Source: Pseudobdellovibrionaceae bacterium (GTDB lineage Bacteria > Pseudomonadota > Alphaproteobacteria > Micavibrionales > Micavibrionaceae). Taken from it: DNA of 64,000 nt. The DNA lies in the NCBI GenBank assembly GCA_041674725.1, contig JBAYVC010000009.1, forward strand, positions 7,396-71,395, read 5' to 3'. Shown one piece after another: positions 23,601 through 63,669 of the stretch (position 1 is its first letter; the number at the start of each line of letters is the position of its first letter). A program made the position numbers and the translations under genes. The notes beneath the pieces are model-generated. The model saw only the letters and a program-made list of their open reading frames with translations, had not been told where the DNA came from and made no database searches.

Positions 23601-23649
23601 AGCGCGATTCTCTTTGATTCTCGCACCTGTCTGCCCTATAATCAATTTG

Positions 23650-47615: not shown

Positions 47616-47641
47616 TCAAAAAAGGACTTTTCCAGTCCCTT
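47616..47641 (-). terminator. Rho-independent terminator directly after the repressor gene
   Basis: The minus-strand RNA reads AGGGAC-UGGAAAA-GUCCUU followed by a U-run, starting right at the stop codon. Confidence 0.6.
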
Positions 47642-48144
47642 TAGAAACGCACATGGCTGATGCGGGCAAGCCAGTGAATGTCGGTTGTTTTATAGATGGT
47701 GGTTTCGTTGCCGCCCATCAATGCCGCGCATTCGGCTTCTTTTTCATTCATGCGGATGAAATGATGGAGGGCGATGTTCCCCGCACGCAAGGACACGGCC
47801 ACGCGGTCGCCCTTGCGCAGGGCGGCTTTCCGGTCAACGACCAAGATGTCGCCTTCCTTGACCCATGGCGCATAAAGCGATGTGGTGATGGTAACGGCCA
47901 TTTCTTCCGCGGCATCTGGCGCCATAAGCTCCAGAAAATCCGGCATGGTAATTTGCGCGGCATCAAGCACGCGCGCAATGCTTTCCGTCGAGGGCCAGCG
48001 CGGCTTTCCGTCGACGGCAATGCGCTTGCTGCGGTTAAATGTCGTGGGATCAAGCCCTGCGCGTCGCGCGAGGCCCGAGGTCGAATACCCCGCGCGTACC
48101 GCCAAGCGGTCAATGGCCAACCAAATCGTTTCGTGTGTAAACAT
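47641..48144 (-). CDS. HTH / peptidase-S24-like (CI/LexA-type) repressor
   Basis: The N-terminal HTH reads IWLAIDRLAVRAGYSTSGLARRAGLDPTTFNRSKR. The C-terminus has the S24-like beta fold (WVKEGDILVVDRKAALRKGDRVAV). It is divergent from the phage-like operon. I placed the start at ATG 48144. Confidence 0.75.
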   Translation of the reverse strand: MFTHETIWLAIDRLAVRAGYSTSGLARRAGLDPTTFNRSKRIAVDGKPRWPSTESIARVLDAAQITMPDFLELMAPDAAEEMAVTITTSLYAPWVKEGDILVVDRKAALRKGDRVAVSLRAGNIALHHFIRMNEKEAECAALMGGNETTIYKTTDIHWLARISHVRF

Positions 48145-48245
48145 GGGAGCAGTATAATCTAGGATTAAAGTCTTGCGTAGTAGAATCTGTAGGAAAAAAT
48201 TCATAAATTTTTCTTGACAAGACGGATTTTGGTTGCCATGAATAA

Positions 48246-48260
48246 GAACATAAAGGGAAC
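48246..48260. promoter_or_regulatory. GAAC-N7-GAAC direct repeat (alphaproteobacterial LexA/SOS-box type) in the switch region
   Basis: GAACATAAAGGGAAC lies 51 nt upstream of the first plus-strand phage gene. It is just downstream of a TTGACA -35-like hexamer (48214-48219) and an imperfect inverted repeat GAAAAAATT-CAT-AAATTTTTC (48193-48213). Confidence 0.5.
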
Positions 48261-48310
48261 AATTGTATCTTGATGATCAATGACCCGTTTAACTTCTGGG
48301 GAATTTTTAT

Positions 48311-48715
48311 ATGCGACACGACATACTTACGTACCCGCGCGGTACGGAGACTACCCTTCCATTTTCATCGGCAACCGAGGCGTGGTTCTGGTTTATTCAG
48401 GCCAATCTTGCCCGCCGCGAGGGGGCCCGCATCAGTGCCGGTGTTGGCCCTGTGACACGCCCGTGCGAACCGGTTGATATTCTGGTGGCGCTCGAACGTC
48501 TCTACCGCAACCGCCGCATCCTGATGGATCATATCCGTATCCTCCATTATTACGGGGTGCGCCTCACTCCCCCTGACCCGCGCCGCCCACGTGAAATTCG
48601 CGCACGCATTTTGTGGGATGAAGCCCTCACCCTGCTCGAGGATGTTTTATGCGACAAGCATATTGTCGTGCGTCCGCACTGGAGCGCCCGTATTGCCGGA
48701 GGCTATGATGCCTGA
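48311..48715 (+). CDS. Hypothetical phage-cluster protein (134 aa, possible regulator)
   Basis: It is the first gene of the plus-strand operon. It is Arg-rich and helical. I recognise no family. Confidence 0.5.
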   Translation: MRHDILTYPRGTETTLPFSSATEAWFWFIQANLARREGARISAGVGPVTRPCEPVDILVALERLYRNRRILMDHIRILHYYGVRLTPPDPRRPREIRARILWDEALTLLEDVLCDKHIVVRPHWSARIAGGYDA

Positions 48716-49082
48716 TTATGCCTTGGTTGTGTTTACCGATGATACGGACATCTGGGGGCTGCGGCTTTTGAAGCGCGGGTTCCGGCATTGTTTCGTGCTG
48801 ATCCATGCTGGCGGTTTATGGGTATCGGTTGATCCGCTCGCCCATAAAACCGATGTGTGCGTGGTCACACCCCGAAACGGCGGCGATCTTGAAGATTGGC
48901 TCACACAGGAAGGCTGTACGCTGGTACGTGTTCCGCTTGAAGAGGCCCCCGCGCAGATGCTCTGGCCTGCGCTTCATACCTGCGTGGAGAGCGTCAAACG
49001 TATTCTGGGCCTGCGGCGCTTTTTGATCGTAACGCCGTGGCAGCTTTACCGCTTTCTGGTACGCACCTATCCCCAGCCTTAA
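48705..49082 (+). CDS. Hypothetical phage-cluster protein (125 aa)
   Basis: It starts at an ATG-ATG pair that overlaps the upstream stop. I recognise no family. Confidence 0.45.
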   Translation: MMPDYALVVFTDDTDIWGLRLLKRGFRHCFVLIHAGGLWVSVDPLAHKTDVCVVTPRNGGDLEDWLTQEGCTLVRVPLEEAPAQMLWPALHTCVESVKRILGLRRFLIVTPWQLYRFLVRTYPQP

Positions 49083-49113
49083 TTATAATCACGTCATTCA
49101 AGGAGATTTTATT

Positions 49114-49359
49114 ATGGGTTCCCTCACGTCACGTCCCAAGGTCACGCCAGTGAGCGTTTCTTCCGCTGCCAGCACGTCGGCATCTACGCCTGTCACTGCA
49201 CCAACCGAAGCCGATCCGGCAGAGATTGCCACAACGCGAGCAGAGAATATCCTGCGTAAAAACCGCGGAGTCATCGGTACGGTTCTGACTAGTTTCCGCG
49301 GCCTTCTGGGCGGCGCTGATTCTGCGCAACAGCAACGCAAAACTTTGCTCGGGGAATAG
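49114..49359 (+). CDS. Small phage protein (81 aa)
   Basis: It has an RBS and a MGSLTSR... N-terminus. The C-terminal motif GVIGTVLTSFRGLLG...RKTLLGE resembles small virion-associated proteins of podoviruses. It lies directly upstream of the portal gene. Confidence 0.5.
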   Translation: MGSLTSRPKVTPVSVSSAASTSASTPVTAPTEADPAEIATTRAENILRKNRGVIGTVLTSFRGLLGGADSAQQQRKTLLGE

Positions 49360-49362
49360 ATC

Positions 49363-50796
49363 ATGACCAATAGCACCCCCAATTTTTCACATATTCTCAT
49401 GCGCTTTGCGGCCGCCAAGGCCGCGCGCGCCGAGTGGGAAAGCCTTTGGCAGGATTGTTATGATTACGCCCTCCCGCAGCGCGGGTCGGGGAGTTTTCGC
49501 CGCAGCGAACGGCTTTATGATGCAACTGCCCTTGATGCGGTCGATCAGCTCTCGAGCCTTATTCTCGCGCATGTCGCACCGCCCCTTACGCCATGGTTCG
49601 GCTTTAAGGCGGGAACGGATTTAAACGACGAGCAGGCAGCGAAAATAACGCCTGCTCTTGAAAAAGCCACGCGGATTATGCAAGCGCATTTCGACCAGTC
49701 TAATTTTACGGTCGAGATTCACCAGTGTTTTCTCGATCTGGTTGTTGCCGGAACCGCATCCCTTTCCTTTGAAGAGGCCGAGCCCGGGCGGCTTTCGGCC
49801 TTCCAGTTCCGCGCCCTTCCCCTTGACCATGTCATCCTCGGCGAGAATGAGAGCGGGCGGCTCGATCATGTGTACCGCACCTTGCACCTCACGCCATCCG
49901 CCATTTTGGAGCGGTACGGCGCAAACGAGATGATAGCGGCTTTGCTGGCCAAGAATAACGAGCCGCTTGATATTGCCGAAGCGGTTATTCCCCATACTAC
50001 CGACCACGGTTACACGCTTTACGCTTTTTATAACGACATTCTCTTGGCGGAGCAGCCCCTAAACGCCTCGCCCTATATAAATTTCCGCTGGATGAAATCG
50101 CCGGGTGAAATTTACGGACGCTCTCCGGTGATGAAGACGCTTCCCGATATTAAAACTGCCAACAAAGTGGTGGAGCTGATCCTTAAAAATGCCTCAATTG
50201 CCGTAACCGGAATCTGGCAGGCCGAAGATGATGGCGTCCTTAACCCCGCGACAATTGAACTGGTACCCGGGGCGATTATCCCCAAGGCGATGGGATCAAA
50301 GGGCCTCACGCCGCTCGAGATGCCCGCGCGCTTTGATGTATCACAGTTGGTGCTGGAGAGTTTGCGCGAGCGCATCCGCTCGGCACTTCTTGTTGACCGT
50401 ATCCCATCCGGCAAGGAGCGTCCGCGCACGGCGACCGAAATACTTGAACGCTCGGCGCAGATGGCGCTCCTTCTGGGCGCGACATTCGGGCGTTTGCAGG
50501 TTGAACTGCTCAACCCTCTTATTATGCGCGCTTATAGTATTTTACAGCGGCGTGGCGTCCTGCCTGATCTGCCGCTTGACGGGCGCAGCGTGGCGATTGA
50601 TTACCGCTCGCCTCTCGCGCAGAGCCAATCGATCCATCAGGCCGATGCGATTGCCAGCTGGTTGCAAAGCATGAGCGGCCTTGGCGCGGAGGTCACGCAG
50701 CAGATCGATAAAAGCGCCCTTGCCGCGTACCTCGCCGAAATGCTCGGTATTCCTTCGTTTTTGACCCAACCCACCCAACCTTCAGCAGGAGAATAA
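49363..50796 (+). CDS. Portal (head-to-tail connector) protein, podovirus T7 gp8 type
   Basis: WESLWQDCYDYALPQRG...RLYDATALDAVDQLSSLILAHVAPPLTPWFGFKAG matches the remembered N-terminal signature of the Head-tail_con family. Length is 477 aa and the position fits. Confidence 0.7.
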   Translation: MTNSTPNFSHILMRFAAAKAARAEWESLWQDCYDYALPQRGSGSFRRSERLYDATALDAVDQLSSLILAHVAPPLTPWFGFKAGTDLNDEQAAKITPALEKATRIMQAHFDQSNFTVEIHQCFLDLVVAGTASLSFEEAEPGRLSAFQFRALPLDHVILGENESGRLDHVYRTLHLTPSAILERYGANEMIAALLAKNNEPLDIAEAVIPHTTDHGYTLYAFYNDILLAEQPLNASPYINFRWMKSPGEIYGRSPVMKTLPDIKTANKVVELILKNASIAVTGIWQAEDDGVLNPATIELVPGAIIPKAMGSKGLTPLEMPARFDVSQLVLESLRERIRSALLVDRIPSGKERPRTATEILERSAQMALLLGATFGRLQVELLNPLIMRAYSILQRRGVLPDLPLDGRSVAIDYRSPLAQSQSIHQADAIASWLQSMSGLGAEVTQQIDKSALAAYLAEMLGIPSFLTQPTQPSAGE

Positions 50797-50798
50797 GA

Positions 50799-51527
50799 AT
50801 GACTGATAATCTTTTGAGCGCGACAACTGGCGACAATGACGTCACCACCATGCCCCCCATTCCGGAAAAATTTATCGATAAAGATACGGGCGCTCTGCGC
50901 ACCGAGGCGCTTCTTTCATCTTATCTTGCCCTTGAAAAACATCTGGGGCGCATGGTGCCACTGCCCGAGAATGATGACGACAAGGCCCGTTTTTATAAAA
51001 TACTGGGCCGTCCCGATACGCCCGATCAATATGACATCACCCTTGCCAGCGATGTGATTGAACTTGATCCGGCCCTGAATGAACGCTTGCACCGCAACGG
51101 ATTTACCAATGCGCAGGTACAGGAAATTTACGACCTTGCCGCCGAAAAACTTGTCCCGCTCCTCCTTGAAATGGCTGCCGAGTACCAGTCCGAGCGCGAG
51201 ATTGAACGACTTGAAGCCCATTTTGGCGGCGCGGACGCTTGGCGCGAGATGGCCCGCCAGCTTAAGGATTTCGGCCAAAAAACTCTGCCGCAGGCAGCTT
51301 ATGAAGGTCTTGCCTGCTCTTATGACGGGGTGCTGGCCCTTCACCGCATGATGAGGGCAAATACATCCTCTGTAACAGGTCCGCGTGACGTTACCAGCGC
51401 CAGCGCACCGGATGAGGCATCACTCAAAAAGATGATGCAAAACCCGAAATATTGGCGCGAGCGCGACCCTGCTTTTATCGCCGAAGTATCTGCCGGATTC
51501 GAGCGGATTTTTGGCAACAATTCCTAA
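50799..51527 (+). CDS. Capsid scaffolding / assembly protein
   Basis: It sits after the portal gene, is acidic and helical, and has the PEKFIDKDTG...LLSSYLALEK N-terminus and a NPKYWRERDPAF C-terminus seen in podoviral scaffolds. Confidence 0.55.
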   Translation: MTDNLLSATTGDNDVTTMPPIPEKFIDKDTGALRTEALLSSYLALEKHLGRMVPLPENDDDKARFYKILGRPDTPDQYDITLASDVIELDPALNERLHRNGFTNAQVQEIYDLAAEKLVPLLLEMAAEYQSEREIERLEAHFGGADAWREMARQLKDFGQKTLPQAAYEGLACSYDGVLALHRMMRANTSSVTGPRDVTSASAPDEASLKKMMQNPKYWRERDPAFIAEVSAGFERIFGNNS

Positions 51528-51556
51528 CCTGACGTTCCTCCCTGTCCAAACCTTGT

Positions 51557-51597
51557 CATCCGGTGTGCCTGCTGTGCACGCCGGATGATCTTTTTTG
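51557..51597 (+). terminator. Rho-independent terminator after the scaffold gene
   Basis: CATCCGG-(17 nt)-CCGGATG followed by ATCTTTTTTG. Confidence 0.7.
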
Positions 51598-51613
51598 AAA
51601 CGAGATTCTGATT

Positions 51614-52227
51614 GTGACGACATTCGCTTTATCAGCCCCCCTCACGCGCGACAGCCCTGCGGACGAGATGGATGTGGTCAAGGTCAAGAAGCTGCTGAAC
51701 CGCACCTTACGCTCATGGAGCAATGCGCCAGACCCGGGCGATGACTACCATTGCCGCTGCTGGGCCGAACCGGTGGCGCAGGAGAAAATCGATCAGCTTT
51801 ATGCCGATGCCATCAAGCCTGTTTATCCCGGCGCTGCGCGCGGGACGCCTGCCGTTCCTTGCCCGATCGCTTTATAAACTGGCCACATCTGAACCACGAT
51901 GGGAGGTTAATCCGCCCAAAAGCCAGCTTCAACGCAAGTTTAAACATGCGGGAGTATTCGGCATTAAGGGAAATCAGAATAACGCTAATCTGGAAAAGTT
52001 TCGACAGGCCTTACAGAAACATGTAGATTCGAAAGATACGATTGTTATTAAAGGCACTTATCACAAGGAACAAGTTACGCACTATTTTACCACGTAGCGG
52101 TATTAATGTGATGCGGCGAAAGTCCGATGGTGAGTTTATTTCGGCTTGGAAACCAGGTGAAAAAAAACTGAAGTTTCTTAAAGAACGTGGCAAGTTGGGC
52201 GGAGGAAAAAATGAACCAAAAACATGA
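51614..52227 (+). pseudogene. Frameshifted remnant of a MuF-type polymorphic toxin with a colicin-D-like (BECR-fold) C-terminal domain
   Basis: Three consecutive frames splice into one sensible protein. The parts are ...DDYHCRCWAEPV...DAIKPVYP, then ALRAGRL...QLQRKFKHAGVFGIKGNQNNANLEKFRQALQKHVDSKDTIVIKGTYHKEQVTHYF, then PRSGINVMRRKSDGEFISAWKPGEKKLKFLKERGKLGG. The shifts are near 51836 and 52090. The toxin family call is from memory. Confidence 0.5.
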
Positions 52228-52260
52228 TGTTCGCAGAAGTCTTGTGCAGCGCTTTATAGC

Positions 52261-52383
52261 GCATACAGACCCCCGCTTACGCGGGGGTGACGTGTGAGGG
52301 CGAGAGGTTTATTTTTCACCACAAAGACACTAAGGGCACTAAGACTGGATTGCTGCGTCATTTCACGCCGCGCAATGACGGGG
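52261..52383. repeat. Composite of small palindromic / MITE-like repeats
   Basis: The parts are CCCCCGC-TTAC-GCGGGGG, then TTCACCACAAAGACACTAAGGGCACTAAGA, then CTGGATTGCTGCG...CGCGCAATGACGGGG. The last two modules recur at 57891-58008. Confidence 0.75.
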
Positions 52384-52388
52384 CTGCG

Positions 52389-52787
52389 TTAGGCCTGAGA
52401 ACCCGCAAATTCACGGGTGTTAAAATCGTCGATCACATTTTGGAAGGTCGCGCGCGATTCTTCGTCAAGCGGCAGGAAGCTGTAGGACACATTGTCCTGC
52501 CCTTTGCGGACGACCATGGCTTTCTGGCGGATGCTGACCAACTGGTCACGCAGATGGAATTTCATCTCGACATCCATCTCCTGCCCTAAATTGATGGGAC
52601 GGGCATCGGCATAGACACGCAGACCGCCCGGGCTCCAATCGAGCACGGGGTGGGCTTTGCCATTGATGAACCCGATACATTGGTCACATGTCCGGCGGGG
52701 AAAGGCACGGCGCGAGGCGAAATTATCATTTCCCTCGAACGTGTATGTCTTTTTGATTCCGAATACGGACATTACTGCTTCTATCAT
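52389..52787 (-). CDS. Stand-alone PilZ domain protein (predicted c-di-GMP receptor)
   Basis: It has RRAFPRR (RxxxR) followed by DWSPGG (DxSxxG) at the canonical spacing. It is 132 aa, on the strand opposite the phage operon, with an AT-rich upstream region. Confidence 0.7.
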   Translation of the reverse strand: MIEAVMSVFGIKKTYTFEGNDNFASRRAFPRRTCDQCIGFINGKAHPVLDWSPGGLRVYADARPINLGQEMDVEMKFHLRDQLVSIRQKAMVVRKGQDNVSYSFLPLDEESRATFQNVIDDFNTREFAGSQA

Positions 52788-53084
52788 TAACTTTTGCTCC
52801 TGGTTAAACCTTTGAAAGGCTTATAATTTCACACCCAGGACACCGAATTTTTAGTAACCAACCAGAGGCTAATATATAAGTACCTTTGGTTAAAAGCAAG
52901 GTTTATTTAATATGAAAATTACTTTTCATGTTAGTAACAGGCAGATAACGGCTTTGGGGGCCGCTTTTCCCCCGCCGTCTGCGCCCCTTTTTTTGTGACG
53001 CGTGAAGGCCCTGCGGTACCCTCCCCAGCGGCAACCTGCCCCGTCATGTCTTTCTCATTTTAACTTTTTGAAAGGACTCACACC

Positions 53085-53915
53085 ATGAGTACAAGTATCT
53101 CCACTGCCTTTATCAAGCAGTTTGAACGTGAAGTGCATGAAACCTACCAGCGTCAAGGATCAAAACTGCGCGCGGCGGTGCGCACCATCGGCAATGTCAA
53201 AGGATCATCCGTTGTCTTCCAGAAAATCGGCAAAGGCACCGCATCGACCAAATCCACCCACGGGATGGTGCCAGTGATGAACCTCGCCCATTCCACAGCC
53301 GAATGTCTTTTGCAGGATTATTACGCGGGCGACTGGGTCGATAAACTTGATGAACTCAAAATCCAGCATGACGAGCGGCAAGTGATTGCCAGCGCCGGAG
53401 CCTATGCTTTGGGACGCAAAACCGACGAGCTGATTATCACGGCCCTTGCGGGCGCCACTACCTATACAGTGGCAGATGCCAATACGGGCCTGACCCGCGA
53501 TAAGGTTCTGGCCGCTTTTGAAAAACTGGGGCAGGCCGACGTACCGGATGACGGGCAGCGCTTTGCCGTAGTTGGCTGGAAGCAATGGTCGGAGCTTCTT
53601 AAAATTCAGGAATTTGCCTCGAGCGATTTTGTGGGGCCCGACCAACTTCCCTACAAAGGACTTCAAGCTAAAACATGGCTTGGCACAACATGGATTCCCC
53701 ATTCAGGATTGCCCATTGACGGGAGCGACATTCGTTCATGTTACTGGTTCCACAAAACCGCCGTGGGGCATGCCGCAGGGTCGGATGTGCAAACCGATAT
53801 TACATGGCACGGCGACCGTGCGTCATTTTTTGTCAATAATTTGATGAGCCAAGGCGCCTCACTCATTGATGCGGCGGGGGTTGTCACGCTCTATTGCGAC
53901 GAAACTCCCGACTAG
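53085..53915 (+). CDS. Major capsid protein
   Basis: It has a strong RBS. Its position in the cluster and the AFIKQFEREVHETYQRQGSKLRAAVR N-terminus fit small podoviral capsid proteins. Length is 276 aa. Confidence 0.6.
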   Translation: MSTSISTAFIKQFEREVHETYQRQGSKLRAAVRTIGNVKGSSVVFQKIGKGTASTKSTHGMVPVMNLAHSTAECLLQDYYAGDWVDKLDELKIQHDERQVIASAGAYALGRKTDELIITALAGATTYTVADANTGLTRDKVLAAFEKLGQADVPDDGQRFAVVGWKQWSELLKIQEFASSDFVGPDQLPYKGLQAKTWLGTTWIPHSGLPIDGSDIRSCYWFHKTAVGHAAGSDVQTDITWHGDRASFFVNNLMSQGASLIDAAGVVTLYCDETPD

Positions 53916-53948
53916 GAGTTATCCGACAATTTTTATCTTTCGGGCTGC

Positions 53949-54026
53949 AAACCCTGTCTTCTTGCGCTTCCGCTTTTTACGTACATCCCAGTACGCGCAA
54001 AGACGGTTCTCAGAAGACAGGGTTTT
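53949..54026 (+). terminator. Long stem-loop after the capsid gene (candidate partial terminator)
   Basis: AAACCCTGTCTTCT...AGAAGACAGGGTTT. The arms are 14 bp and enclose an inner CGTAC/GTACG hairpin. TTTCG follows. Confidence 0.45.
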
Positions 54027-54109
54027 CGCCACGAAATCTCTCAATTGTCAGATACTCCTTCTCACTTCATTTTTTCTTTTTTCCATTTTTTATTTTAGGA
54101 GTTTTTATT

Positions 54110-54352
54110 ATGGCTTTTGTTACAAAAGACCTCAGCGTTCTGGCCTATGCCAACAACTTCACCCTGTGGCATTACACCACCATCGACGCATCAGTGGTCA
54201 CCGCCGGATATTTCAATTCCGCCGCCAGTATGCTGCGGGTGAATGATCTGATTATTGTCAATCTCGATACGGATGGCACGCCGTCCACGGTGTTTTATGT
54301 GGTTACCGCCAACACCGGAACGGCCGTTACCCTTGCCGCTTTTACCGCGTGA
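54110..54352 (+). CDS. Small phage structural-module protein (80 aa)
   Basis: It has an AGGAG RBS 8 nt upstream and reads MAFVTKDLSVLAYANNFTLWHYTT.... It lies between the capsid and tail tubular genes. Confidence 0.55.
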   Translation: MAFVTKDLSVLAYANNFTLWHYTTIDASVVTAGYFNSAASMLRVNDLIIVNLDTDGTPSTVFYVVTANTGTAVTLAAFTA

Positions 54353-54419
54353 GCCCCCGCCTTTGACACGCGCGTAGGGGTGGTGCTGACCTTTACGTCA
54401 CACCGTCCGTATCGACCCA

Positions 54420-54477: not shown

Positions 54478-54489
54478 CAGGAGATTCTT

Positions 54490-55062
54490 ATGGCCCTTAC
54501 CGATATCGGTTTATGCAGCCGCGCCCTTGTCCAGATCGGTGCGCACCCCATCACATCCTTTACCGATGACACCGCGCAGTCGGAGATTGCGGCGCTCCTT
54601 TATGCGCCCGTGCGTGACTCCTTGCTCTCGGCGTACGCATGGAGTTTTGCCACGGGGCAGGTTAATATCCTGCCGCTCGCCAGCACGCCACTGGCTGATT
54701 ACCCCTATGCGTATGAACTCCCCCTTGATTGCCTGCGCGTGATTTCGGCTGGTGCCACGGGTTCCGGCAGCGGTCTTCCCAGCCGTCTTTACCGCGGGAC
54801 GCTACAATGCGCGGCTCCCGAAGGCATTACCCTTACCTATATCTTCCGCACCGATGAGGCCAGTTTTCCGCCCTATTTCGACATGGCTCTCATCACGCGC
54901 CTTGCCGCCGAGTTTTGCTTACCCCTCACCGAAAACACAGCGCGCGCCACATTTCTGGCAGGAGCTGCCGAGAAAGAATTCGCCCGCGCCCGCCAGATCG
55001 ATGCGCAGCAAGACAGTCCCAATCGCATTACCCGTTTCAGCCTGATTGACGCGCGGGAGTAG
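54490..55062 (+). CDS. Tail tubular protein A (T7 gp11-like adaptor)
   Basis: At 190 aa it is close to gp11 in size. The LCSRALVQIGAHPITSFTDDTAQSEIAALLYAPVRDSLLSAYAWSFA N-terminus matches the remembered gp11-family pattern. Confidence 0.6.
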   Translation: MALTDIGLCSRALVQIGAHPITSFTDDTAQSEIAALLYAPVRDSLLSAYAWSFATGQVNILPLASTPLADYPYAYELPLDCLRVISAGATGSGSGLPSRLYRGTLQCAAPEGITLTYIFRTDEASFPPYFDMALITRLAAEFCLPLTENTARATFLAGAAEKEFARARQIDAQQDSPNRITRFSLIDARE

Positions 55063-56967: not shown

Positions 56968-56996
56968 GGGTTTTTCACCACAGAAGGAAATTATGC

Positions 56997-57323
56997 ATGG
57001 GTGCTCGAACCTCAAAACTTGATACACTTGCGTATGTAGCATCAGGTCAACAACTCAAGAGAAAAAATATTCTCGTATCGGAAATTGAGCGGGAATATCT
57101 TCCCCCTCTTAAAATGGAAGAACCTAAAATACCAGGGACTAATATCCCTGATCGTGGCGTTCCTGAGGCGTATGTCCCGCCTGAACCTCCCGAGTGGCGT
57201 AAGAATAATATTATCGATCCAATGGAGATAATAGTACCTCCAGTTGATGAGGATATCATGTTACCGTATAGTAAAGACGATCCGAATCTCTTTATGCGGA
57301 CACGAAAAACACGGAGCCTGTAA
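56997..57323 (+). CDS. Hypothetical Pro-rich protein (108 aa), AT-rich insert
   Basis: It has an AAGGA RBS and reads MGARTSKLD...PPEPPEW.... It is visibly AT-richer than the neighbouring tail genes. Confidence 0.45.
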   Translation: MGARTSKLDTLAYVASGQQLKRKNILVSEIEREYLPPLKMEEPKIPGTNIPDRGVPEAYVPPEPPEWRKNNIIDPMEIIVPPVDEDIMLPYSKDDPNLFMRTRKTRSL

Positions 57324-57326
57324 GTT

Positions 57327-57821
57327 ATGCCGACTTTGAAGAAATATATCTTTTTATCTGTTTCTTTGTTGTTTTCTTTTTCAGCGGCCCTGCTTTTGCT
57401 GTGTATTTTTCCGGCACAGGCTTATGATATTCGTCTGCAGTTCGCCCATAATCCAGAGAAAATTTACGCCCACACCTGTGCGGATGATGAGGCGACATGC
57501 GCGGCCTATTTCAGCATTCCCTTTATGTGCGATACCCCCTCGCCCGATAAAAAATTCTGCCGCGGCACAATCGAGGCTGGCGTTATGGTAGAAGATGGCA
57601 CGATGAGCATTGGATTTTTATATGGAGAGGCTAAATTATCCACATCCCCCGTAGGGTGGCAACAATTTGACCAACCTCTGAGGTTTTTGAATGAAATTCC
57701 TCAACCTGTTGATTTATACATCCCCAATCCCATGAACGATGAAGGTTCAGGACTTAAAAAGTCGCTGGTTTTGCTGCCACCCAACGCCTTCCTGACCTCG
57801 GTGATTGTGTCGGTGAAGTAA
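57327..57821 (+). CDS. Hypothetical secreted Cys-containing protein (164 aa), AT-rich insert
   Basis: It has a signal peptide (LLLLCIFPAQA-YD) and several Cys residues. I recognise no family. Confidence 0.45.
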   Translation: MPTLKKYIFLSVSLLFSFSAALLLLCIFPAQAYDIRLQFAHNPEKIYAHTCADDEATCAAYFSIPFMCDTPSPDKKFCRGTIEAGVMVEDGTMSIGFLYGEAKLSTSPVGWQQFDQPLRFLNEIPQPVDLYIPNPMNDEGSGLKKSLVLLPPNAFLTSVIVSVK

Positions 57822-57851
57822 GACTTAAACCACCAGAAAATATCGAACTTT

Positions 57852-58008
57852 ACCATCATTGCGAGCACATGCGCCGCAATCCAGTTCTTATTCACCGCAG
57901 AGAGCACAGAGGTCACAGAGAAATTCACAGAGTTTTTCTCGTTCCGTCATTTTCTGAATTCCGCATGTCTGGATTGCTTCGTCGGCTGAGGCCTCCTCAC
58001 AATGACGG
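57852..58008. repeat. MITE-like element bounded by inverted hairpin repeats
   Basis: The left end is ATCATTGCG-AGCACATGCGC-CGCAATCCAG. The core is TTCACCGCAGAGAGCACAGAGGTCACAGAGAAATTCACAGAG. The right end, in inverted orientation, is CTGGATTGCTTCG...CACAATGACGG. Confidence 0.75.
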
Positions 58009-58053
58009 TATCCTCAAAAATTATACATTCAACACATAATAAGGAGATTATTT

Positions 58054-58515
58054 ATGGGTTCGTTTACTTCAGCGATCGCTCCGGTTTTGCAGGCTGGATC
58101 GGTGCTCACTACTGCGCTGCAATTTGCCAGTCCGCTGCTCAAAGCTTCAGGGTCAGCCAAAGCGGCTGATGCGCAGTACCAAAAAACAGCCGCCGATATT
58201 GCGCTTAAAAAGCAGCAAAACCTCCTCGATTATCAAACGCAGGAGGCCGCGCGGCAGCGCAAACTCCGCGCTGTACTCTCTACATCCCGCGCGGAAAGTG
58301 GGGCCGCAGGCCTTGATTCATCGGCGTCATCTGATGCCGTGCGCGAAAATATGGTGAGCCAGTCGGATATTGAGCGACAAAATAATGATGCAAATTATAG
58401 CTTGAACGAAGCAGCGCTTGACAATTCACTCTCTAGCGCGCGGCGGCAGAATTTACTCAGTAAACAAGAAGCCCGCCAAAACGGTTTGATCGATAGTTTT
58501 TCAAGTGTGTTTTAG
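58054..58515 (+). CDS. Small virion-internal-like protein (153 aa)
   Basis: It has a strong RBS (AAGGAG). It is Ala/Gln/Ser-rich and helical and sits between the tail tube and tailspike genes, where podoviruses encode internal virion proteins. Confidence 0.45.
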   Translation: MGSFTSAIAPVLQAGSVLTTALQFASPLLKASGSAKAADAQYQKTAADIALKKQQNLLDYQTQEAARQRKLRAVLSTSRAESGAAGLDSSASSDAVRENMVSQSDIERQNNDANYSLNEAALDNSLSSARRQNLLSKQEARQNGLIDSFSSVF

Positions 58516-58524
58516 GAGACTCCC

Positions 58525-60552
58525 ATGCCCGAGCATATTAAAATCGCTGATGTTCCGCCGCTTACGCGCATCCTCGCCGATGGCGCCACCACCATTTTTC
58601 CTTTTGCCTTTCCGGTGTTTGCCAGTGAAGATGTGCGCGTGTCATGTAACGGCGCGCCGCAATCATCCGGCTTTACGGTGGAGAATGCCGGATCAAGTTC
58701 CGGCGGTCAGGTAGTGTTTGACAGTGCGCCCGCAAACGGCATTATCGTGACGCTTGAGCGGCGCATGGCTTTTGAACGCCTCACCGACTTTGTCGAAGGC
58801 GGTGATTTTTCGGCCCAAGCTATCAATACCGAGCTTGATTATCTGGTCGCGGCCTTACAACAAGTCAGCCGTGACCAATTCCCCATGCTGCGTTTTAGCG
58901 ATGATGAAAATGCGCCCAGCACCACCGAAATTCCTTCGCGTACGGTGCGGGCAGGAAGAGCGCTCGGCTTTGACGGGGACGGCAACCCCGTGGCCGTGTC
59001 CCTTGCAGGGTCAATGGCAGCGCCCGATTTCACCGCCACCGGCACAGGGGGCATCACCCGCCCGAGCAACGATAAATTATCCGAGCAGGTGAGCGTCAAA
59101 GATTTCGGGGCGGTTGGGGATGGTCTCACCAATGATACACTCGCTTTTCAAAACGCTTTGGCGGCGCATAAATGTGTTTTTGTCCCGAGCGGCACTTATA
59201 TGATTACCGCCACACTTATGCTTGAAAATGGGCAGCGTATTTTCGGCGCGGGCGATTCAAGCGAAATTAAAACACTCTCCACCAGCCTAACCTTGATCCA
59301 TGTGCGGGGAAGTTATAACCAGATTTCCAATTTAAAACTTTTTGGCGGGGGCACGGGGCTGTTGTTTGAAGGGGCAAGCCAGCCGTGTGTGCAAAATGCC
59401 GTGTGCGATGTGTCCATCTGGCAGGCGCAGACGGGCATTACACTCGATGGCGGGACATCAACGTCCGCGCCTGTTTATTGGAATAATTTTGCGCGGGTAC
59501 TGGTAGCGCAGCCTTTTGTCAACGGCATTCACCTGATGCGATCCGGCACGGGTGACACGCCCAACGCCAACCGTTTTGCGCAGTGCCGTGTGTATTCCCT
59601 TGGCGCCACCACATCGGGCCACGGGATTTATATCGAAGAAGGGTCGTTCAATAATTCTTTTACCGACACGGAAGTGAATGTGAACGGCACCGCGCAAGCG
59701 TGCGTACGCGCAGGCGCAGGGTCAAACAAAACCTTGTTTGTCAATTTGTACACCGAGAGTTTTAATGCCGTGCCCAATGTGCGGCTTGATAGCGGATCGA
59801 TTGAAACGGCAATTTATAACCTGCTTTCAGCCAGTGACGGGGCCGCGATTTGGGATTTATCGGGCGGGCAATATAGCTCCTTTAATGCGGGGTACCCGCA
59901 CAAGAACCGCCTGCAAAAAACCACCTGCCTTGATATGACATCCACTTTGCAGCGGTTTGATACGGAGTATATTGATGCAAGCGGTAGCGTGACTTTGGAT
60001 ACCTCCCACTCCATTCATCTGGTATCTAGCTATGGCGGGGCGCTCACTGTCAATCTGCCCGCAGCCAGCAGTGCCAGCGGGTGCCTGATGGTCATAAAAA
60101 AAACCGATACATCAAAAAATATTATCACCGTGGCCGAAAGTGGCGGGGCGGGGCCTGACGGTACGTCCTACTCCCTTGGGGGCGAGAATGATTATGTTGC
60201 GATGATTTCAAACGGGGCGGAATGGTTTGTGATTTCGTCGAACCGCGCCCCGGGCAACACACGATATTATGATGGGTCGGGAATTTACGACATTGATATG
60301 GCGGTGGATGTGTATTTGCTTTCCTCCTTTGGCGGGTCGCTCACGGCGCGGCTGCCGCCTGCCAATGCCGCAAAAGCTGTGGGGCGCATGGTGACCCTTA
60401 AAAAAACCGATGTATCGGGTAACGCCATCACAATCAGCGTTCAAGGCGGCGCAGGGCCTGACCAGTATAACCAGACCCTCGCCAGCCAGTTTCAGGCGAT
60501 CACGCTCGTGTCAGACGGCGGGTCGTGGCATATCCTGTCCCGTTACCCGTAA
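58525..60552 (+). CDS. Tailspike / tail fibre with a pectate-lyase-type beta-helix and a tandemly duplicated C-terminal domain
   Basis: It has an N-terminal podoviral fibre-adaptor-like region. VSVKDFGAVGDGLTNDTLAFQNALAA...VFVPSGTYMI is the Pectate_lyase_3 hallmark. Two repeats of about 90 aa share SS.GG.LT..LP.A...G..V..KKTD.S.N.IT....GGAGPD......W.I.S. Confidence 0.75.
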   Translation: MPEHIKIADVPPLTRILADGATTIFPFAFPVFASEDVRVSCNGAPQSSGFTVENAGSSSGGQVVFDSAPANGIIVTLERRMAFERLTDFVEGGDFSAQAINTELDYLVAALQQVSRDQFPMLRFSDDENAPSTTEIPSRTVRAGRALGFDGDGNPVAVSLAGSMAAPDFTATGTGGITRPSNDKLSEQVSVKDFGAVGDGLTNDTLAFQNALAAHKCVFVPSGTYMITATLMLENGQRIFGAGDSSEIKTLSTSLTLIHVRGSYNQISNLKLFGGGTGLLFEGASQPCVQNAVCDVSIWQAQTGITLDGGTSTSAPVYWNNFARVLVAQPFVNGIHLMRSGTGDTPNANRFAQCRVYSLGATTSGHGIYIEEGSFNNSFTDTEVNVNGTAQACVRAGAGSNKTLFVNLYTESFNAVPNVRLDSGSIETAIYNLLSASDGAAIWDLSGGQYSSFNAGYPHKNRLQKTTCLDMTSTLQRFDTEYIDASGSVTLDTSHSIHLVSSYGGALTVNLPAASSASGCLMVIKKTDTSKNIITVAESGGAGPDGTSYSLGGENDYVAMISNGAEWFVISSNRAPGNTRYYDGSGIYDIDMAVDVYLLSSFGGSLTARLPPANAAKAVGRMVTLKKTDVSGNAITISVQGGAGPDQYNQTLASQFQAITLVSDGGSWHILSRYP

Positions 60553-60581
60553 TTTTCAATTCCCAACATTCCGGAGTTTTT

Positions 60582-60887
60582 ATGACCTCATCATCCCCGC
60601 TCTTGAGTGCGCAGGTGCGCGCGCAAATTGCCGCGTTTTTGCCCCGCGCGCTGGCAAAGGCCGTAGAGTCTTACCGCGCCCATATGGATAAAAGCATCGA
60701 AGACAAAAAATTTTCCGAACATCACAAGGACGCCAAGGTTGCCATCGGCCATATCGAACTGCTTATAAAACTGGCCAAGTGGGCTGAACTTCCTACAGGA
60801 GCGGCATCCCAAGGCCCCGCGCTGGAGATGCTGCTTTTCGAGGCGCAAAAAGAACTTGAACAGGCTGGCGAGGAGGAGGATTCATGA
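60582..60887 (+). CDS. Small protein upstream of TerL (possible small terminase subunit)
   Basis: It has a GGAG RBS, encodes a 101-aa helical protein, and its stop overlaps the TerL start (ATGA). The function is inferred from position only. Confidence 0.4.
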   Translation: MTSSSPLLSAQVRAQIAAFLPRALAKAVESYRAHMDKSIEDKKFSEHHKDAKVAIGHIELLIKLAKWAELPTGAASQGPALEMLLFEAQKELEQAGEEEDS

Positions 60888-62365
60888 CATGCTCGTTTCC
60901 GCTTTTTGTGATTCTGTGGAACAAGATACAAGGGCAGAGCACGCCTGCGGTTCACCTCAAAATCGCGCGGTTTCTGAATATGTCCCGGGAGGAGGCTCAC
61001 CCCCGTGTCCTGTTGATGGCCTTCCGCGCCTGCGGGAAATCGAGCATCACCGGCCTGTATTGCGCGTGGTGTTTATGGCGCGATCCGGCACTTCGTATTC
61101 TGGTGCTCTCGGCTGATCTGGCTCTTGCACGCAAAATGGTGCGAAACGTCAAACGCATTATCGAGAAGCACCCGATGACCTGTCACCTCAAGCCTCCGCA
61201 TCCTGACCAATGGGGGGCTGAACGTTTTACGGTAGTGCGCCCTGCTGAGCTTCGTGACCCTTCCATGCTTGCCAAAGGGGTGACCACCAACCTGACAGGA
61301 ACGCGCGCTGACCTGATTATTTGTGATGATGTCGAGGTGCCGCGTACATCGGATAGTTTGCAAAAGCGCCTTGACCTGCGCGAGAGGCTCCGCGAGCTTG
61401 ATTATATCTTGACCCCCGCAGGCCAGCAAATTTATATCGGCACGCCGCACCATTTTCACAGTATCTATGCGGATAAACCCCGCGCCGAATATGGCGAGGA
61501 AGCTCCGTTTCTGGACGGGTTCAAGCGGCTGGTTATTCCTGTTTTGAGTCATGATGGGGTTAGTGTTTGGCCGGAGCGTTTTACAATGGAGACCATCGAT
61601 TCCATCCGGCGGGCCACCGGCCCGATGCAGTTTCAAAGCCAGATGATGTGTGAACCCGTGAATATGGCCGAGAGCCGGATCAACCCTGACCTGCTTCATT
61701 TTTACGAAGGTGACGCGGTTTACCGCGAAGCAGGCGGGCGCGGGTTTATTCATGTGGGCGATCAGGCGATGGCGTCGGTAGCGGCATGGTGGGACCCTGC
61801 CTTTGGCAGCGCGGGCGGTGACCGCAGTGTTCTGGCTATTCTTTATACGGGAAATGACGGGCGCTACTGGCTGCACCATCTTGCACTCCTCACAAATGTG
61901 CCCCACGCGAGCGAGGATGAAGCCACGCAGCAATGCCGCAAAGTCGCAGCAACTCTTGCGCAGTTTCATGTGCCTTCGGTTGCAATTGAAACCAACGGGA
62001 TCGGCAAATTTCTGCCCGCCATTCTCCGGCGCGAGATTGCGCGGCACGTGGCGAGTGGCGGCGCGCCGTGCGGGGTCAGGGAGGTTACATCACGCCGCCC
62101 CAAAAGTTTGCGCATTCTCGAGGCGTTTGATGCGGTACTGGCCGCGCGAGCGCTTTATGTTCACCGCTCGGTGCTCACCACGCCTTTTGTGACCGAGATG
62201 CGCGACTGGCGGCCCCATGCGCCGTCACAAAAGGATGATTGCCTTGACGCTGTAGCCGGCGCTTTGTCCCTTGCTCCAGTGCGGATGACCCCGCGTGGGG
62301 GAGAGAGTGGCCGATCATGGATTGCGGGAAAACCTCCCCACGGCACAAGCTCTTTCGATATCTGA
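60884..62365 (+). CDS. Terminase large subunit
   Basis: It has a Walker A-like motif (AFRACGKSS), Walker B (DLIICDDVE), the ILVLSADLALARKMV coupling region and a C-terminal RNaseH-like nuclease region. Length is 493 aa. Confidence 0.8.
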   Translation: MTCSFPLFVILWNKIQGQSTPAVHLKIARFLNMSREEAHPRVLLMAFRACGKSSITGLYCAWCLWRDPALRILVLSADLALARKMVRNVKRIIEKHPMTCHLKPPHPDQWGAERFTVVRPAELRDPSMLAKGVTTNLTGTRADLIICDDVEVPRTSDSLQKRLDLRERLRELDYILTPAGQQIYIGTPHHFHSIYADKPRAEYGEEAPFLDGFKRLVIPVLSHDGVSVWPERFTMETIDSIRRATGPMQFQSQMMCEPVNMAESRINPDLLHFYEGDAVYREAGGRGFIHVGDQAMASVAAWWDPAFGSAGGDRSVLAILYTGNDGRYWLHHLALLTNVPHASEDEATQQCRKVAATLAQFHVPSVAIETNGIGKFLPAILRREIARHVASGGAPCGVREVTSRRPKSLRILEAFDAVLAARALYVHRSVLTTPFVTEMRDWRPHAPSQKDDCLDAVAGALSLAPVRMTPRGGESGRSWIAGKPPHGTSSFDI

Positions 62366-62381
62366 TTTATGGAGAACATCT

Positions 62382-62633
62382 ATGCCCAACACACCCCTTG
62401 ACCTGATCGGGTGGTGGATTGCCGTGATTGAAATTCCGGTGATCTCTGCCCTGTTCTGGATGCTGACCCGTCTGCGTGACGAACTTGCCACCCACCGGAT
62501 CGAGGTCGCCAAAAATTATGCGCAGATTTCCGAGATGCGCATTTTAGAAAACCGCCTTACCTCCCACCTGCTGCGCATCGAAGCCAAGCTCGATGTTACC
62601 GCTCTTAAAACCGAAAGGATCCATCATGACTAA
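62382..62633 (+). CDS. Small membrane protein of the lysis cassette (83 aa)
   Basis: It has a GGAGAA RBS, one N-terminal TM helix (LIGWWIAVIEIPVISALFWML) and a coiled C-terminus. It overlaps the endolysin start. Confidence 0.5.
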   Translation: MPNTPLDLIGWWIAVIEIPVISALFWMLTRLRDELATHRIEVAKNYAQISEMRILENRLTSHLLRIEAKLDVTALKTERIHHD

Positions 62634-63111
62634 ACCACCTCAACTCACCCCTGTGCCCTCTGCCGGAACTCCTGCTGCCCGCGATTTCGAAGCCCAGCGC
62701 GAGGTGGATATTCTCGCCCGCACCTTGTGGGGCGAGGCGCGCGGGGAAGGTATCCAAGGTATGGAGGCTGTTGCTTGCGTGATCCTCAACCGCCTTGCTA
62801 TCGCCAAAGCGCACGGGTTTGATTATTGGTGGGGCAATTCGGTGATCCAGATTTGCCAAAAGTCGTACCAGTTTTCATGCTGGAACAAAGACGACCCGAA
62901 TTACCCGCGCCTGCTTGCCGTCGATGCCGCCAGCAATATGCAGTTTGCCACAGCGCTGCGGATTGCGCGGCGGGCTTTGCTCGGGTTTTTAACCGATGCC
63001 ACGGGCGGCGCCACTCATTATCATGCCCGCCATGTCAGCCCCAACTGGATTGCAGGAAGCGCCCCCGTTGCCGCCATCGGACATCATGTGTTTTATAAAT
63101 TGGTGGAGTAG
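62626..63111 (+). CDS. SleB-type cell-wall hydrolase (endolysin)
   Basis: LARTLWGEARGEGIQGMEAVACVILNR...YQFSCWN is the Hydrolase_2 (SleB) signature. Confidence 0.8.
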   Translation: MTKPPQLTPVPSAGTPAARDFEAQREVDILARTLWGEARGEGIQGMEAVACVILNRLAIAKAHGFDYWWGNSVIQICQKSYQFSCWNKDDPNYPRLLAVDAASNMQFATALRIARRALLGFLTDATGGATHYHARHVSPNWIAGSAPVAAIGHHVFYKLVE

Positions 63112-63114
63112 ATC

Positions 63115-63669
63115 ATGCCCATGCCTGTTTTACTGCAAGCCGGACTTCCCGCCCTGATCAAGGGACTCGCCGGAGCCCTTAAAAATGTCAACACCCCCGT
63201 GGCGCAGGGTGCATCAAGCGCCCTCGACGCCTTGTCAGGTTCCTTTGCCACAGGCGAGATGTCCGACACGCAGCTTGCCGAGATCAACCGTCATCTGGAG
63301 AAAATGGAAGAGTTTGAAACAGGCGAGCGCGCAGTGGCCATTCAGCAGATTAACGAATCGCTGCGCACGGAAGTCGCGTCAAACGACCCGTATGTCCGGC
63401 GGATGCGGCCAACCTTCGGATATATCATTGCCCTCACTTGGGCCGCGCAAATGCTCGCCATTGCTTATGTCATTGTGTTCGATACCCAAGAGGCCGCGCT
63501 GGTGATTGAGGCTGTCCAATCACTCAGCACCATCTGGGCGGTGGGCCTCTCTGTTCTGGGGATTTATGTGTATCGCCGTTCCAGCGAGAAACAAAATTTC
63601 ACGAGCGCTCCTGCGCCCTCCCCTAAACCCGTCACTGCGCCTATCCGGCCCCCCCACTACAACCCCTAA
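63115..63669 (+). CDS. 3-TM holin of the gene-transfer-agent-release type
   Basis: It has a Gly/Ala-rich N-terminus, a central helical region, a YVRRMRPTFGYI motif and C-terminal TM helices. This fits the remembered GTA_holin_3TM family layout. Confidence 0.55.
   Translation: MPMPVLLQAGLPALIKGLAGALKNVNTPVAQGASSALDALSGSFATGEMSDTQLAEINRHLEKMEEFETGERAVAIQQINESLRTEVASNDPYVRRMRPTFGYIIALTWAAQMLAIAYVIVFDTQEAALVIEAVQSLSTIWAVGLSVLGIYVYRRSSEKQNFTSAPAPSPKPVTAPIRPPHYNP

Follow-up and report, generated by a model that had tools for sequence, protein, structure and literature searches.

The DNA analyzed here, hereafter the window, is a 64-kb stretch of a Micavibrionaceae genome (contig JBAYVC010000009.1, positions 7,396 to 71,395). 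At 47641-63669 it holds a block of about 16 kb, the element of this study, which consists of phage head, short-tail, and lysis genes and is a candidate podovirus-derived gene transfer agent (GTA). The locus was characterized by a map of its open reading frames (ORFs) and by family searches in Pfam, PHROG, and PDB. In the ORF map, a leftward repressor gene is followed by a dense, rightward array in which the stops and starts of neighboring genes overlap. The features are given below with their strand; gp denotes a gene product of phage T7, and counts out of 46 refer to related loci that were spanned completely.

47641..48204, minus: repressor with an N-terminal XRE-type helix-turn-helix (HTH) and a degenerate S24 domain (weak Pfam matches to Peptidase_S24 and HTH_26)
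48213..48260, plus: promoter/operator of the particle operon, with -35 CTTGACA (48213-48219), candidate -10 ATGAAT (48238-48243), and LexA-type SOS box GAACATAAAGGGAAC (48246-48260)
48311..48715, plus: g134, small helical protein, first gene of the operon (46/46 loci)
48708..49082, plus: g124, small alpha/beta protein with invariant His27/Cys28 and Cys92 (46/46 loci)
49114..49359, plus: g81, small conserved protein (phrog_831; 43/46 loci)
49363..50796, plus: portal, T7 gp8 type (PF12236, E 5.7e-121; phrog_332)
50799..51527, plus: scaffolding protein (PF05396 Phage_T7_Capsid, E 5.5e-12)
51555..51589, plus: terminator-like hairpin 3' of the scaffold gene (14-bp stem, then a T run)
51614..52097, plus: decayed cargo, a polymorphic toxin whose Colicin_D tRNase domain is truncated (51879-52097)
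52389..52787, minus: PilZ-domain protein (PF07238; in 67 loci)
53085..53915, plus: major capsid protein (PF19821, E 3e-82)
53920..54054, no strand: 43-nt inverted repeat just past the capsid stop codon (repeat search)
54110..54352, plus: g80, very conserved small protein (phrog_18004; 71 loci, median identity 69%)
54490..55062, plus: tail tubular protein A, gp11-like adaptor (phrog_394, E 2.7e-44)
55063..56967, plus: tail tubular protein B, gp12-like nozzle (phrog_376, E 1.9e-141)
56997..57821, plus: g108 and g164, an insertion of low GC content; g164 has a signal-peptide-like N-terminus
58054..58515, plus: gp14-like internal virion protein (PF24072, E 1.8e-6)
58525..60552, plus: tailspike built of an N-terminal adaptor, a beta-helix of the pectate-lyase type, and two repeats at the C-terminus (PF12708, PF13229)
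60582..60887, plus: g101 (phrog_31793, function unknown; found in 32/46 loci)
60884..62365, plus: large terminase TerL (phrog_38, E 4.5e-84)
62382..62633, plus: g83, small membrane protein of the lysis cassette (phrog_29007; 44/46 loci)
62626..63111, plus: SleB-type cell-wall hydrolase, the endolysin (PF07486, E 9.5e-19)
63115..63669, plus: holin of the three-transmembrane (3-TM) GTA type (PF11351 GTA_holin_3TM, E 1.6e-10)

The family searches recovered every gene named in a preliminary description of the window, which had placed a podovirus-type head-tail-lysis locus here. The capsid profile matched a solved 289-aa phage capsid (PDB 9eg4, E 3e-32), the gp12 profile matched a structure entitled 'Tail Nozzle' (PDB 8ck1, E 2e-81), and TerL matched T7 gp19 (PDB 4bij, E 2.4e-25) and carries Walker A (CGKSS) and Walker B (LIICDD) motifs. 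The N-terminus of the tailspike matched phrog_1640. The gp14-like protein gave no BLASTP alignment with the ~177-aa protein that lies between gp12 and the spike in 44 other loci, and profile comparison with hhalign identified the two as homologous (probability 100%, E 6e-46). We regard g101, which is placed where T7 gp18 sits, as a possible small terminase. The 43-nt inverted repeat may be an attenuator or terminator; its placement resembles that of T7 Tphi. The hairpins after the capsid and scaffold genes recall the T7 terminator after gene 10.

The first two genes of the operon resisted assignment. g134 had no match in Pfam, PHROG, or NCBIfam, and its AlphaFold2 model, built from an alignment of homologues (predicted local distance difference test score [pLDDT] 82), had no Foldseek match in PDB below E = 1. 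The model of g124 (pLDDT 92.6) likewise had no significant match in PDB and resembled only uncharacterized proteins of uncultured tailed phages (BFVD, TM score 0.85). A papain-like peptidase was considered for g124; the similarity was weak and not reliable, and the assignment was dropped.

The element lies between two host genes, a peroxiredoxin gene on the left and a TolC-like gene on the right, just as had been described. The end of the peroxiredoxin gene is 81 bp from the repressor gene, and farther to the left are genes for an aminotransferase and a major facilitator superfamily transporter, ilv genes, degP, and rpoB. The TolC-like OEP gene starts 106 bp past the holin; the window continues for 330 bp past the holin, and this stretch encodes the signal peptide and first helix of the TolC-like protein. 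In a second assembly of the same organism, OEP, ABC, and HlyD genes (a type I secretion operon) and a CHASE2 cyclase gene lie downstream. Pfam identified ten large window ORFs outside the locus as ordinary chromosomal genes. The base composition of the element is near that of its host: GC content at third codon positions (GC3) is 0.59 in the element and 0.56 in host genes.

Pfam and PHROG searches found no integrase or replication gene in the locus. A phage single-subunit RNA polymerase and a DNA replication module, which mark the Autographiviridae in the strict sense, were absent from the locus, from the 47 kb upstream, and from related loci. The window contains no tRNA gene, a permuted transfer-messenger RNA (tmRNA) gene 24 kb away being the only such RNA gene, and no attachment (att) repeats or other direct repeats bracketing the element. 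That integration and replication genes, att repeats, and a tRNA target are missing had been noted from the window; integration and replication genes were also missing from the recurrent flank clusters and the cargo ORFs that we scanned. Internal core proteins of gp15/gp16 size are absent as well, the gp14-like protein being the sole internal core type present. Their loss had also been remarked upon, and no element that we examined has an ORF longer than 677 aa.

The element is not peculiar to the window genome; its family is very large. Thousands of proteins are related to the gp12-like protein, and the top 120 of them (about 632 aa, 63-72% identity) derive from uncultured alphaproteobacteria and lie on contigs as long as 2 Mb. 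In a scan of one genome per species, 543 places encoded a gp12 relative, and the best 80 loci were compared. Nearly all of these are in Micavibrio or Micavibrionales-type metagenome-assembled genomes (MAGs), with three complete chromosomes among them. When the window proteins were mapped onto the 80 loci, essentially every long-enough locus had the whole array in one order and orientation: rep(-), g134, g124, g81, portal, scaffold, PilZ(-), capsid, g80, gp11, gp12, gp14, spike, g101, TerL, g83, SleB, and holin (related loci are designated L plus a number below). What is specific to the window genome is limited to g108, g164, and the toxin remnant.

The chromosomal position is also conserved. 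Across deeply diverged species, the left flank is recurrently purC, NAD kinase, and orotate phosphoribosyltransferase (pyrE) genes, and the right flank is nhaA (23 loci) and isocitrate dehydrogenase (icd). These names were read from sequence, with tool annotation for NAD kinase and the phosphoribosyltransferase only; by the same reading, the 15 largest recurrent flank clusters look like housekeeping or membrane genes. The clade of the window has the aminotransferase and peroxiredoxin genes on the left, likewise in L006-L008 and L164, and a third clade has degP on the left and still nhaA on the right. Thus, gene order was kept in about 80 species-level genomes and housekeeping flanks recurred, in line with the position and synteny expected of a resident element.

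The element has diverged together with its flanks. Identities of portal, capsid, gp12, and TerL tracked those of the flanking NAD kinase, NhaA, or PurC (r 0.7-0.84, Mantel p = 0.001), and the element proteins were conserved at least as well as the flank enzymes, with a capsid median of 75-81% versus 55-58% for NhaA and NAD kinase. The median capsid identity across related loci was 74%. All eight major genes were full length in 39 of the 46 fully spanned loci; intact structural ORFs had been described for the window. The ratio of nonsynonymous to synonymous substitution rates (dN/dS), determined in eight close pairs for 17 genes, was 0.02-0.3 on all 17, including the repressor, g134, g124, PilZ, and lysis genes; separate ranges for close pairs were 0.01-0.18 for g134 and 0.0-0.24 for PilZ. 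Core genes remained intact at divergences where synonymous sites are saturated. These results bear out the suggestion of long residence with purifying selection on the particle genes. The tailspike was 57-73% identical over its full length within Micavibrionales, and in other orders the N-terminal adaptor alone was conserved. Such full-length conservation is unusual for a phage receptor-binding protein. One MAG, OFTM66, has two diverged copies of the whole element (L043 and L056 on JAJFGU010000020 and JAJFGU010000022; gp12 dN 0.08, dS about 1), which is due either to a true duplication or to a bin that mixes two species.

We compared the intergenic region between the repressor gene and g134 in 49 Micavibrio-type loci. 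About 27 nt downstream of a conserved CTTGACA is a GAAC-N7-GAAC box, which was kept in 45 of the 49. A 17-mer, AGAACATAAAGGGAACA, was identical in 30 loci, though synonymous sites are saturated between many of them. The GAAC-N7-GAAC motif has a single match in the whole window, and a motif of this type is the SOS box of Caulobacter LexA (PMC9578287). Relatives of the Acetobacteraceae type have GTTC-N7-GTTC at the equivalent place. A box of either form follows the -35 element in L003-L083 and L105-L131, and the Azospirillum copies have GAAC-N4-GTTC in its place. The CtrA box, TTAA-N7-TTAA, was absent from all 49 promoter regions. A simple promoter scan missed the conserved promoter, because its -10 element is non-canonical. 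Clade-specific palindromes such as TCCTAGATATAGGA occur upstream of the -35 element and are candidate operators for the element's own repressor. Judging from sequence, it could also be this repressor, not LexA, that binds the GAAC-N7-GAAC box.

The HTH of the repressor was kept in 40 of the 46 spanned loci. Most relatives have repressors that retain a LexA-like Ala-Gly cleavage site ('IPVIGYAQAG'), the GDSM serine, and the AKEL lysine. The preliminary description was right about an HTH/S24 repressor gene, and alignment revealed that the window copy has lost the Ala-Gly site, the catalytic Ser, and the Lys; in its closest relatives, the serine is being lost. Translation of the window repressor likely starts at the Met codon at 48144. 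We rejected the possibility that the repressor is the host LexA: a canonical relative scored 27.6 bits on TIGR00498 (cut-off 111), a weak match of the S24 domain only.

In 11 species, the S24 domain has been deleted and the repressor HTH is joined in frame to a complete pyrE (orotate phosphoribosyltransferase, 314 bits against the equivalog model). The fusions are at the left element end in L018, L020, L024, L026, L034, L043, L047, L061, L066, L067, and L072. The pyrE fused here is a neighboring host gene in other loci. The product could be a metabolite-sensing repressor like PurR, which combines an HTH and a phosphoribosyltransferase, or a mere read-through fusion. In either case, excision would destroy the junction, so an element that was still excising could not sustain it. 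A junction of this sort can be passed on only by inheritance.

The PilZ gene is not part of the decayed cargo but a conserved core gene, and the RxxxR and DxSxxG motifs were kept in 66 of the 67 loci that have it. From these motifs the protein is presumed to be a receptor of cyclic di-GMP (c-di-GMP). In the slot that separates the scaffold gene from the capsid gene, there is always a gene of the opposite strand, and which gene it is depends on the lineage (window 52389-52787; L167/L168 6700-9580; L171 9144-9773; L175 13283-13972). Micavibrio types have PilZ there, Azospirillum has a PRC-barrel protein, and Thalassospira and M. aberrantis have proteins of 209 and 229 aa. In Azospirillum, the slot also contains a co-oriented gene for a PAS-HAMP-GGDEF-EAL protein. 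Thus, the PilZ motifs and the Azospirillum GGDEF-EAL gene point to a c-di-GMP input in two lineages.

The decayed toxin described for the window is real. The remnant matches PF11429 (E 4e-12) over model positions 1-52 of 84, and relatives of its fragments c87 and c124 were found by tblastn in only two loci and one locus, respectively. The miniature inverted-repeat transposable element-like repeats that had been described along with it were not borne out, only the 43-nt inverted repeat and the hairpin being seen. g108 and g164 had no homologue in any of the 80 loci and no match to a Pfam or PHROG family. We surveyed the non-core ORFs of 82 elements: 381 ORFs fell into 227 clusters, and the largest ORF was 677 aa. 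Pfam searches of the largest cargo representatives found RTX/GH12 proteins, polymorphic toxins headed by PG_binding_1, GNATs, and HipA, and no integrase or replication family. Intact PG_binding_1-headed toxins with variable C-termini occur in various slots of other loci, and in L163 such a toxin is combined with a Mu_F head-morphogenesis domain, a Colicin_E5 domain, and an immunity gene. Intergenic slots are hot spots for cargo (L163 7466-8875 and 11900-13303; L051 2702-4711; L031 4602-6635; window 51614-52097).

Elsewhere in the window, two features were noted. The tmRNA gene at 23635-24014 is of the permuted, two-piece type, which fits an alphaproteobacterial host, and encodes the tag peptide ANDNVQTVAANDNVFVAVGEKIAA. 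At 15071-15574 on the minus strand is an ORF of 167 aa with a GC3 of 0.34, versus 0.56 for its neighbors, and no Pfam match. It adjoins a gene for a Laminin_G_3 protein (15786-17099, plus strand) and may be a small foreign insertion.

The family extends beyond Micavibrionales. A scan of IMG/VR found 582 relatives; among the best 80, most were the same element, often called as a 'provirus' of 12-19 kb, and none had terminal repeats. In this collection (L083-L162), hundreds of copies are listed as viral genomes or proviruses, and many are cut exactly at the repressor gene or g134 and at the holin. One of them, L134 (IMG/VR 3300031555_010385), is rearranged: the repressor gene, g134, and g124 are followed by g101, TerL, g83, SleB, and holin, and then by portal through gp12. 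Exact look-up of the capsids of isolate-derived IMG/VR loci identified as hosts Azospirillum, Magnetospira, Magnetospirillum/Phaeospirillum, Caenispirillum, Thalassospira, and Acetobacteraceae (Roseicella, Paracraurococcus, Dankookia, Belnapia, Roseomonas). Many Azospirillum species fell within one 90% capsid cluster, and many species of Thalassospira were represented. The capsid clusters that were read did not list Micavibrio aeruginosavorus ARL-13 among their named members. In annotated contexts from A. brasilense, Thalassospira, and M. aberrantis, the same architecture is flanked by host genes. In Azospirillum, a 'phage-related lysozyme' (locus tags AZOLI_2690 and AZOBR_20012) is the sole phage-like gene of the core genome and has a conserved context (PMC3899980); it may be the SleB-type endolysin of the element (cf. 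L167-L170).

Near-identical loci in complete phage genomes were looked for, as they would have spoken against a domesticated element, and none was found. The closest GenBank phages (Yersinia YeP4-6, pelagiphages, and epsilon15-like phages) reached about 33% gp12 identity at best. The gp12 of L159, a 34-kb viral contig (IMG/VR 3300005670_000020), was 46% identical. L159 contains a Toprim primase, a helicase-like ATPase, portal, gp11, gp12, and capsid, and at the internal core position it carries proteins of 556 and 1169 aa, whereas the element has neither these nor the primase. L159 appears to be a true podophage relative of the element and is a useful outgroup for reconstructing the ancestor.

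Taking these observations together, we consider it probable, though with only modest confidence, that the locus descends from a temperate podophage, has become fixed in the chromosome, is inherited vertically, and is kept by its hosts as a particle machine under their own control that resembles a GTA or PBSX (a 'viriform'). It belongs to the same reading that the ancestor had a T7-type late-gene layout and has since lost its integration and replication genes and its large internal core proteins. The reading as a domesticated, GTA-like element was first put forward in the preliminary description, and every comparative test run gave the result that it predicted; the function of a GTA is a prediction from these sequence comparisons.

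From the gene content we infer how such a machine might form particles, package DNA at random, come under SOS and c-di-GMP control, deliver DNA to the periplasm, and transfer genes. At rest, the main promoter upstream of g134 would be shut by host LexA bound to the GAAC-N7-GAAC box, which overlaps the putative transcription start, and in most relatives the element's HTH-S24 repressor would be a second lock. DNA damage would lift both locks through activated RecA (RecA*), and the divergently encoded PilZ protein would add a c-di-GMP input. Proheads would be built from portal, scaffold, and capsid and filled with DNA by TerL of the T7 type, for which g101 may serve as small subunit. Because the element seems unable to excise or replicate, the packaged DNA would have to be mostly host chromosome. 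The short tail would be completed by gp11, gp12, gp14, and the tailspike, and holin, endolysin, and g83 would lyse the producer. Released particles might bind a surface polysaccharide conserved within the lineage. Since equivalents of gp15/gp16 are missing, the DNA would probably be delivered no further than the periplasm and taken up by host functions, as in the Rhodobacter capsulatus GTA (RcGTA).

A fuller version of this picture is offered as a tentative proposal, which we would expect to fail somewhat more readily than to hold. It states that the element is an ancient podovirus-derived GTA, independently domesticated and the first with a short tail, in Micavibrionales and broad-sense Rhodospirillales that have no RcGTA. 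It would be switched by SOS and tuned by c-di-GMP, and it would bring host DNA, possibly with head-packaged toxins, only as far as the periplasm, gp15/gp16 having been discarded.

Several points weigh against these readings. Particles, their DNA content, and transfer are predicted from genes, and most comparative data come from MAGs. A particle without gp15/gp16 may deliver no DNA at all. Seven chains were deposited for 9eg4, the solved capsid closest to that of the element, and by analogy this suggests a T=7 ancestor; a full-size T=7 head could hold the 16-kb locus, and the GTA criterion 'cannot package own genes' may then fail. No small terminase was identified by family matches in the locus. 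An S24 repressor with SOS control is equally typical of an ordinary inducible prophage, and the window repressor is degenerate. Flanking genes vary from clade to clade, which means that rearrangement or relocation of the locus has happened a few times. In A. brasilense (L167-L169), transposases and insertion sequences (ISs) replace the repressor gene, g134, and g124 and truncate the portal gene, and in Magnetospirillum ME-1 (L173) the left half is gone, the locus beginning at the capsid gene right after aroA, cmk, and rpsA. Such decaying copies in some lineages indicate that selection is not universal.

The alternative that survives best is a weapon: a killer particle like PBSX or a 'headed bacteriocin', induced by SOS and released by lysis, or a carrier of polymorphic toxins, serving competition or Micavibrio predation. 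Pyocins and PBSX typically have SOS-type control of the sort predicted at the promoter. Toxins with a PG_binding_1 head recur in slots of the structural strand, to which L163 adds Mu_F, Colicin_E5, and an immunity gene; the loss of gp15/gp16 fits particles that need not inject DNA; and the tailspike is strongly conserved. However, purifying selection on TerL, portal, and scaffold is as strong as that on the tail genes, which suggests that filling the heads with DNA matters, and the toxin cargo is sporadic, variable, and often decayed, as in the window. We consider a killer particle unlikely, if still worth serious attention.

A functional minimal temperate phage is a second alternative, and an improbable one. 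Replication and integration would then depend on g134, g124, or host enzymes, and the same chromosomal sites would have been targeted repeatedly. The full virion and lysis set, the CI-like S24 repressor, and the SOS-linked promoter would suit such a phage; g134 and g124 are conserved at an early position without an informative fold match, IMG/VR classes hundreds of copies as viral, and flanks vary between clades. By contrast, att repeats, a tRNA, and terminal repeats were not found, and no integrase or replication gene was present in the elements examined, whereas the true phage relative L159 has a primase, a helicase-like ATPase, and large internal proteins. The in-frame fusion of the repressor to pyrE is common to 11 species, the element co-diverges with its flanks, and its proteins are as conserved as housekeeping ones. 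Moreover, the whole length of the tailspike is conserved within an order, which is not the case for the receptor-binding proteins of phages.

The cluster might also be kept without complete particles, for altruistic lysis, for protein release via the holin and endolysin, or for exclusion of related phages. The lysis cassette and the repressor are conserved, and an SOS-triggered lysis module could presumably be selected by itself. Yet this would leave unexplained the equal constraint on portal, scaffold, capsid, nozzle, spike, and TerL, as well as their co-linear retention, and we give the idea little credence. An inert, functionless prophage remnant that has not yet decayed is hardly credible: the missing early genes, the degenerate window repressor, the decayed cargo, the IS-disrupted A. 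brasilense copies, and the half-locus of Magnetospirillum ME-1 would fit it, but it is contradicted by 39 of 46 spanned loci being intact despite saturated synonymous sites, by dN/dS of 0.02-0.3 throughout, and by a 17-nt non-coding operator that is exact in 30 loci.

The reading as a domesticated particle machine can be set against known systems. PBSX of Bacillus subtilis is a fixed locus without integration or replication functions that is SOS-inducible and lysis-released and fills its heads with host DNA; it is a myovirus-like, contractile particle of Firmicutes, and it kills rather than transfers. The element is likewise a fixed chromosomal locus without integration or replication functions; the other parallels are drawn by analogy, and the genes are unrelated. 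BaGTA of Bartonella, VSH-1 of Brachyspira, Dd1, and VTA are independently derived GTAs, that is, domesticated tailed-phage remnants whose particles contain host DNA, and they differ from the element in ancestry and morphology. Capsid-forming phage-inducible chromosomal islands (cf-PICIs) have an integrase and replication genes but no tail, and tailocins have no capsid, portal, or terminase. Both share with the element phage-derived structural genes that reside in chromosomes, whereas the element has full head, tail, terminase, and lysis genes and no integrase.

In late genes, the element corresponds to T7-like podophages, among them temperate relatives that bear an integrase, and to epsilon15-type and Pelagibacter-type podophages, both in homology and in order (portal, scaffold, capsid, gp11, gp12, gp14, fibre/spike, small ORF, and TerL), and it has T7-like hairpins after the scaffold and capsid genes. 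It differs from these phages in having no RNA polymerase, DNA polymerase, primase/helicase, integrase, or proteins of gp15/gp16 size. A T7-type tail that works without gp15/gp16 would raise a mechanistic question.

To our knowledge, no known GTA is podoviral. Our literature search found no podoviral GTA and no paper describing the cluster, in agreement with the earlier statement that no such GTA had been described; the search left subscription journals mostly uncovered, so an earlier description is possible. The genome paper of M. aeruginosavorus ARL-13 does not mention the cluster. The Azospirillum papers discuss only RcGTA-like genes and the conserved 'phage-related lysozyme'. Particles with 10 kb of random DNA from A. 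lipoferum were assigned by their authors to the RcGTA-like genes, and they are reportedly siphovirus-like; in view of this attribution and form, we did not link them to the element.

The closest comparison is with RcGTA. Each is a co-oriented cluster of about 15-16 kb for head, tail, and packaging that is chromosomally fixed, has no integrase or replication genes, and is inherited vertically under purifying selection, although on the side of the element the likeness is one of genes. Both have a PF11351 (GTA_holin_3TM) holin and a cell-wall hydrolase for release. RcGTA is under c-di-GMP control, and the element may likewise be linked to host regulators. By analogy, DNA uptake beyond the periplasm would probably depend on the recipient in both. 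The structural genes of the two are unrelated, and the body plans differ: RcGTA combines a siphoviral tail with an HK97-type capsid and a prohead protease, whereas the element has a T7-type portal, scaffold, PF19821 capsid, gp11/gp12, gp14, and spike. All its head and tail genes match T7-type families, and the holin family PF11351 alone is common with RcGTA (Rhodogtaviriformidae). In the element, the lysis genes are inside the cluster and the promoter has a LexA box and no CtrA box. The element lives in deep-branching Micavibrio and Rhodospirillales lineages reported to be without large RcGTA clusters, deep-branching alphaproteobacterial groups carrying only small fragments of such clusters (PMC5721377).

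We conclude that the element, as judged from its genes, is a strong candidate for a new, podovirus-based GTA, a viriform on an independently domesticated podoviral chassis. About 540 places in the genome collection have a gp12 relative, and hundreds more are in IMG/VR, where virus catalogues now count such loci as proviruses. Plant-associated Azospirillum, magnetotactic spirilla, marine Thalassospira, and predatory Micavibrio are among the hosts. Since several carriers can be grown in culture, the idea is directly testable. Domesticated control would be on display in the LexA box, in the PilZ or GGDEF-EAL gene in a fixed slot, and in the repressor whose cleavage domain has been swapped for pyrE. 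Only a handful of independent phage-to-GTA domestications are known. If the candidate holds true, it would stand beside RcGTA as a second, very widespread GTA family of alphaproteobacteria and would revise how common such domestication is and which phage body plans can undergo it.

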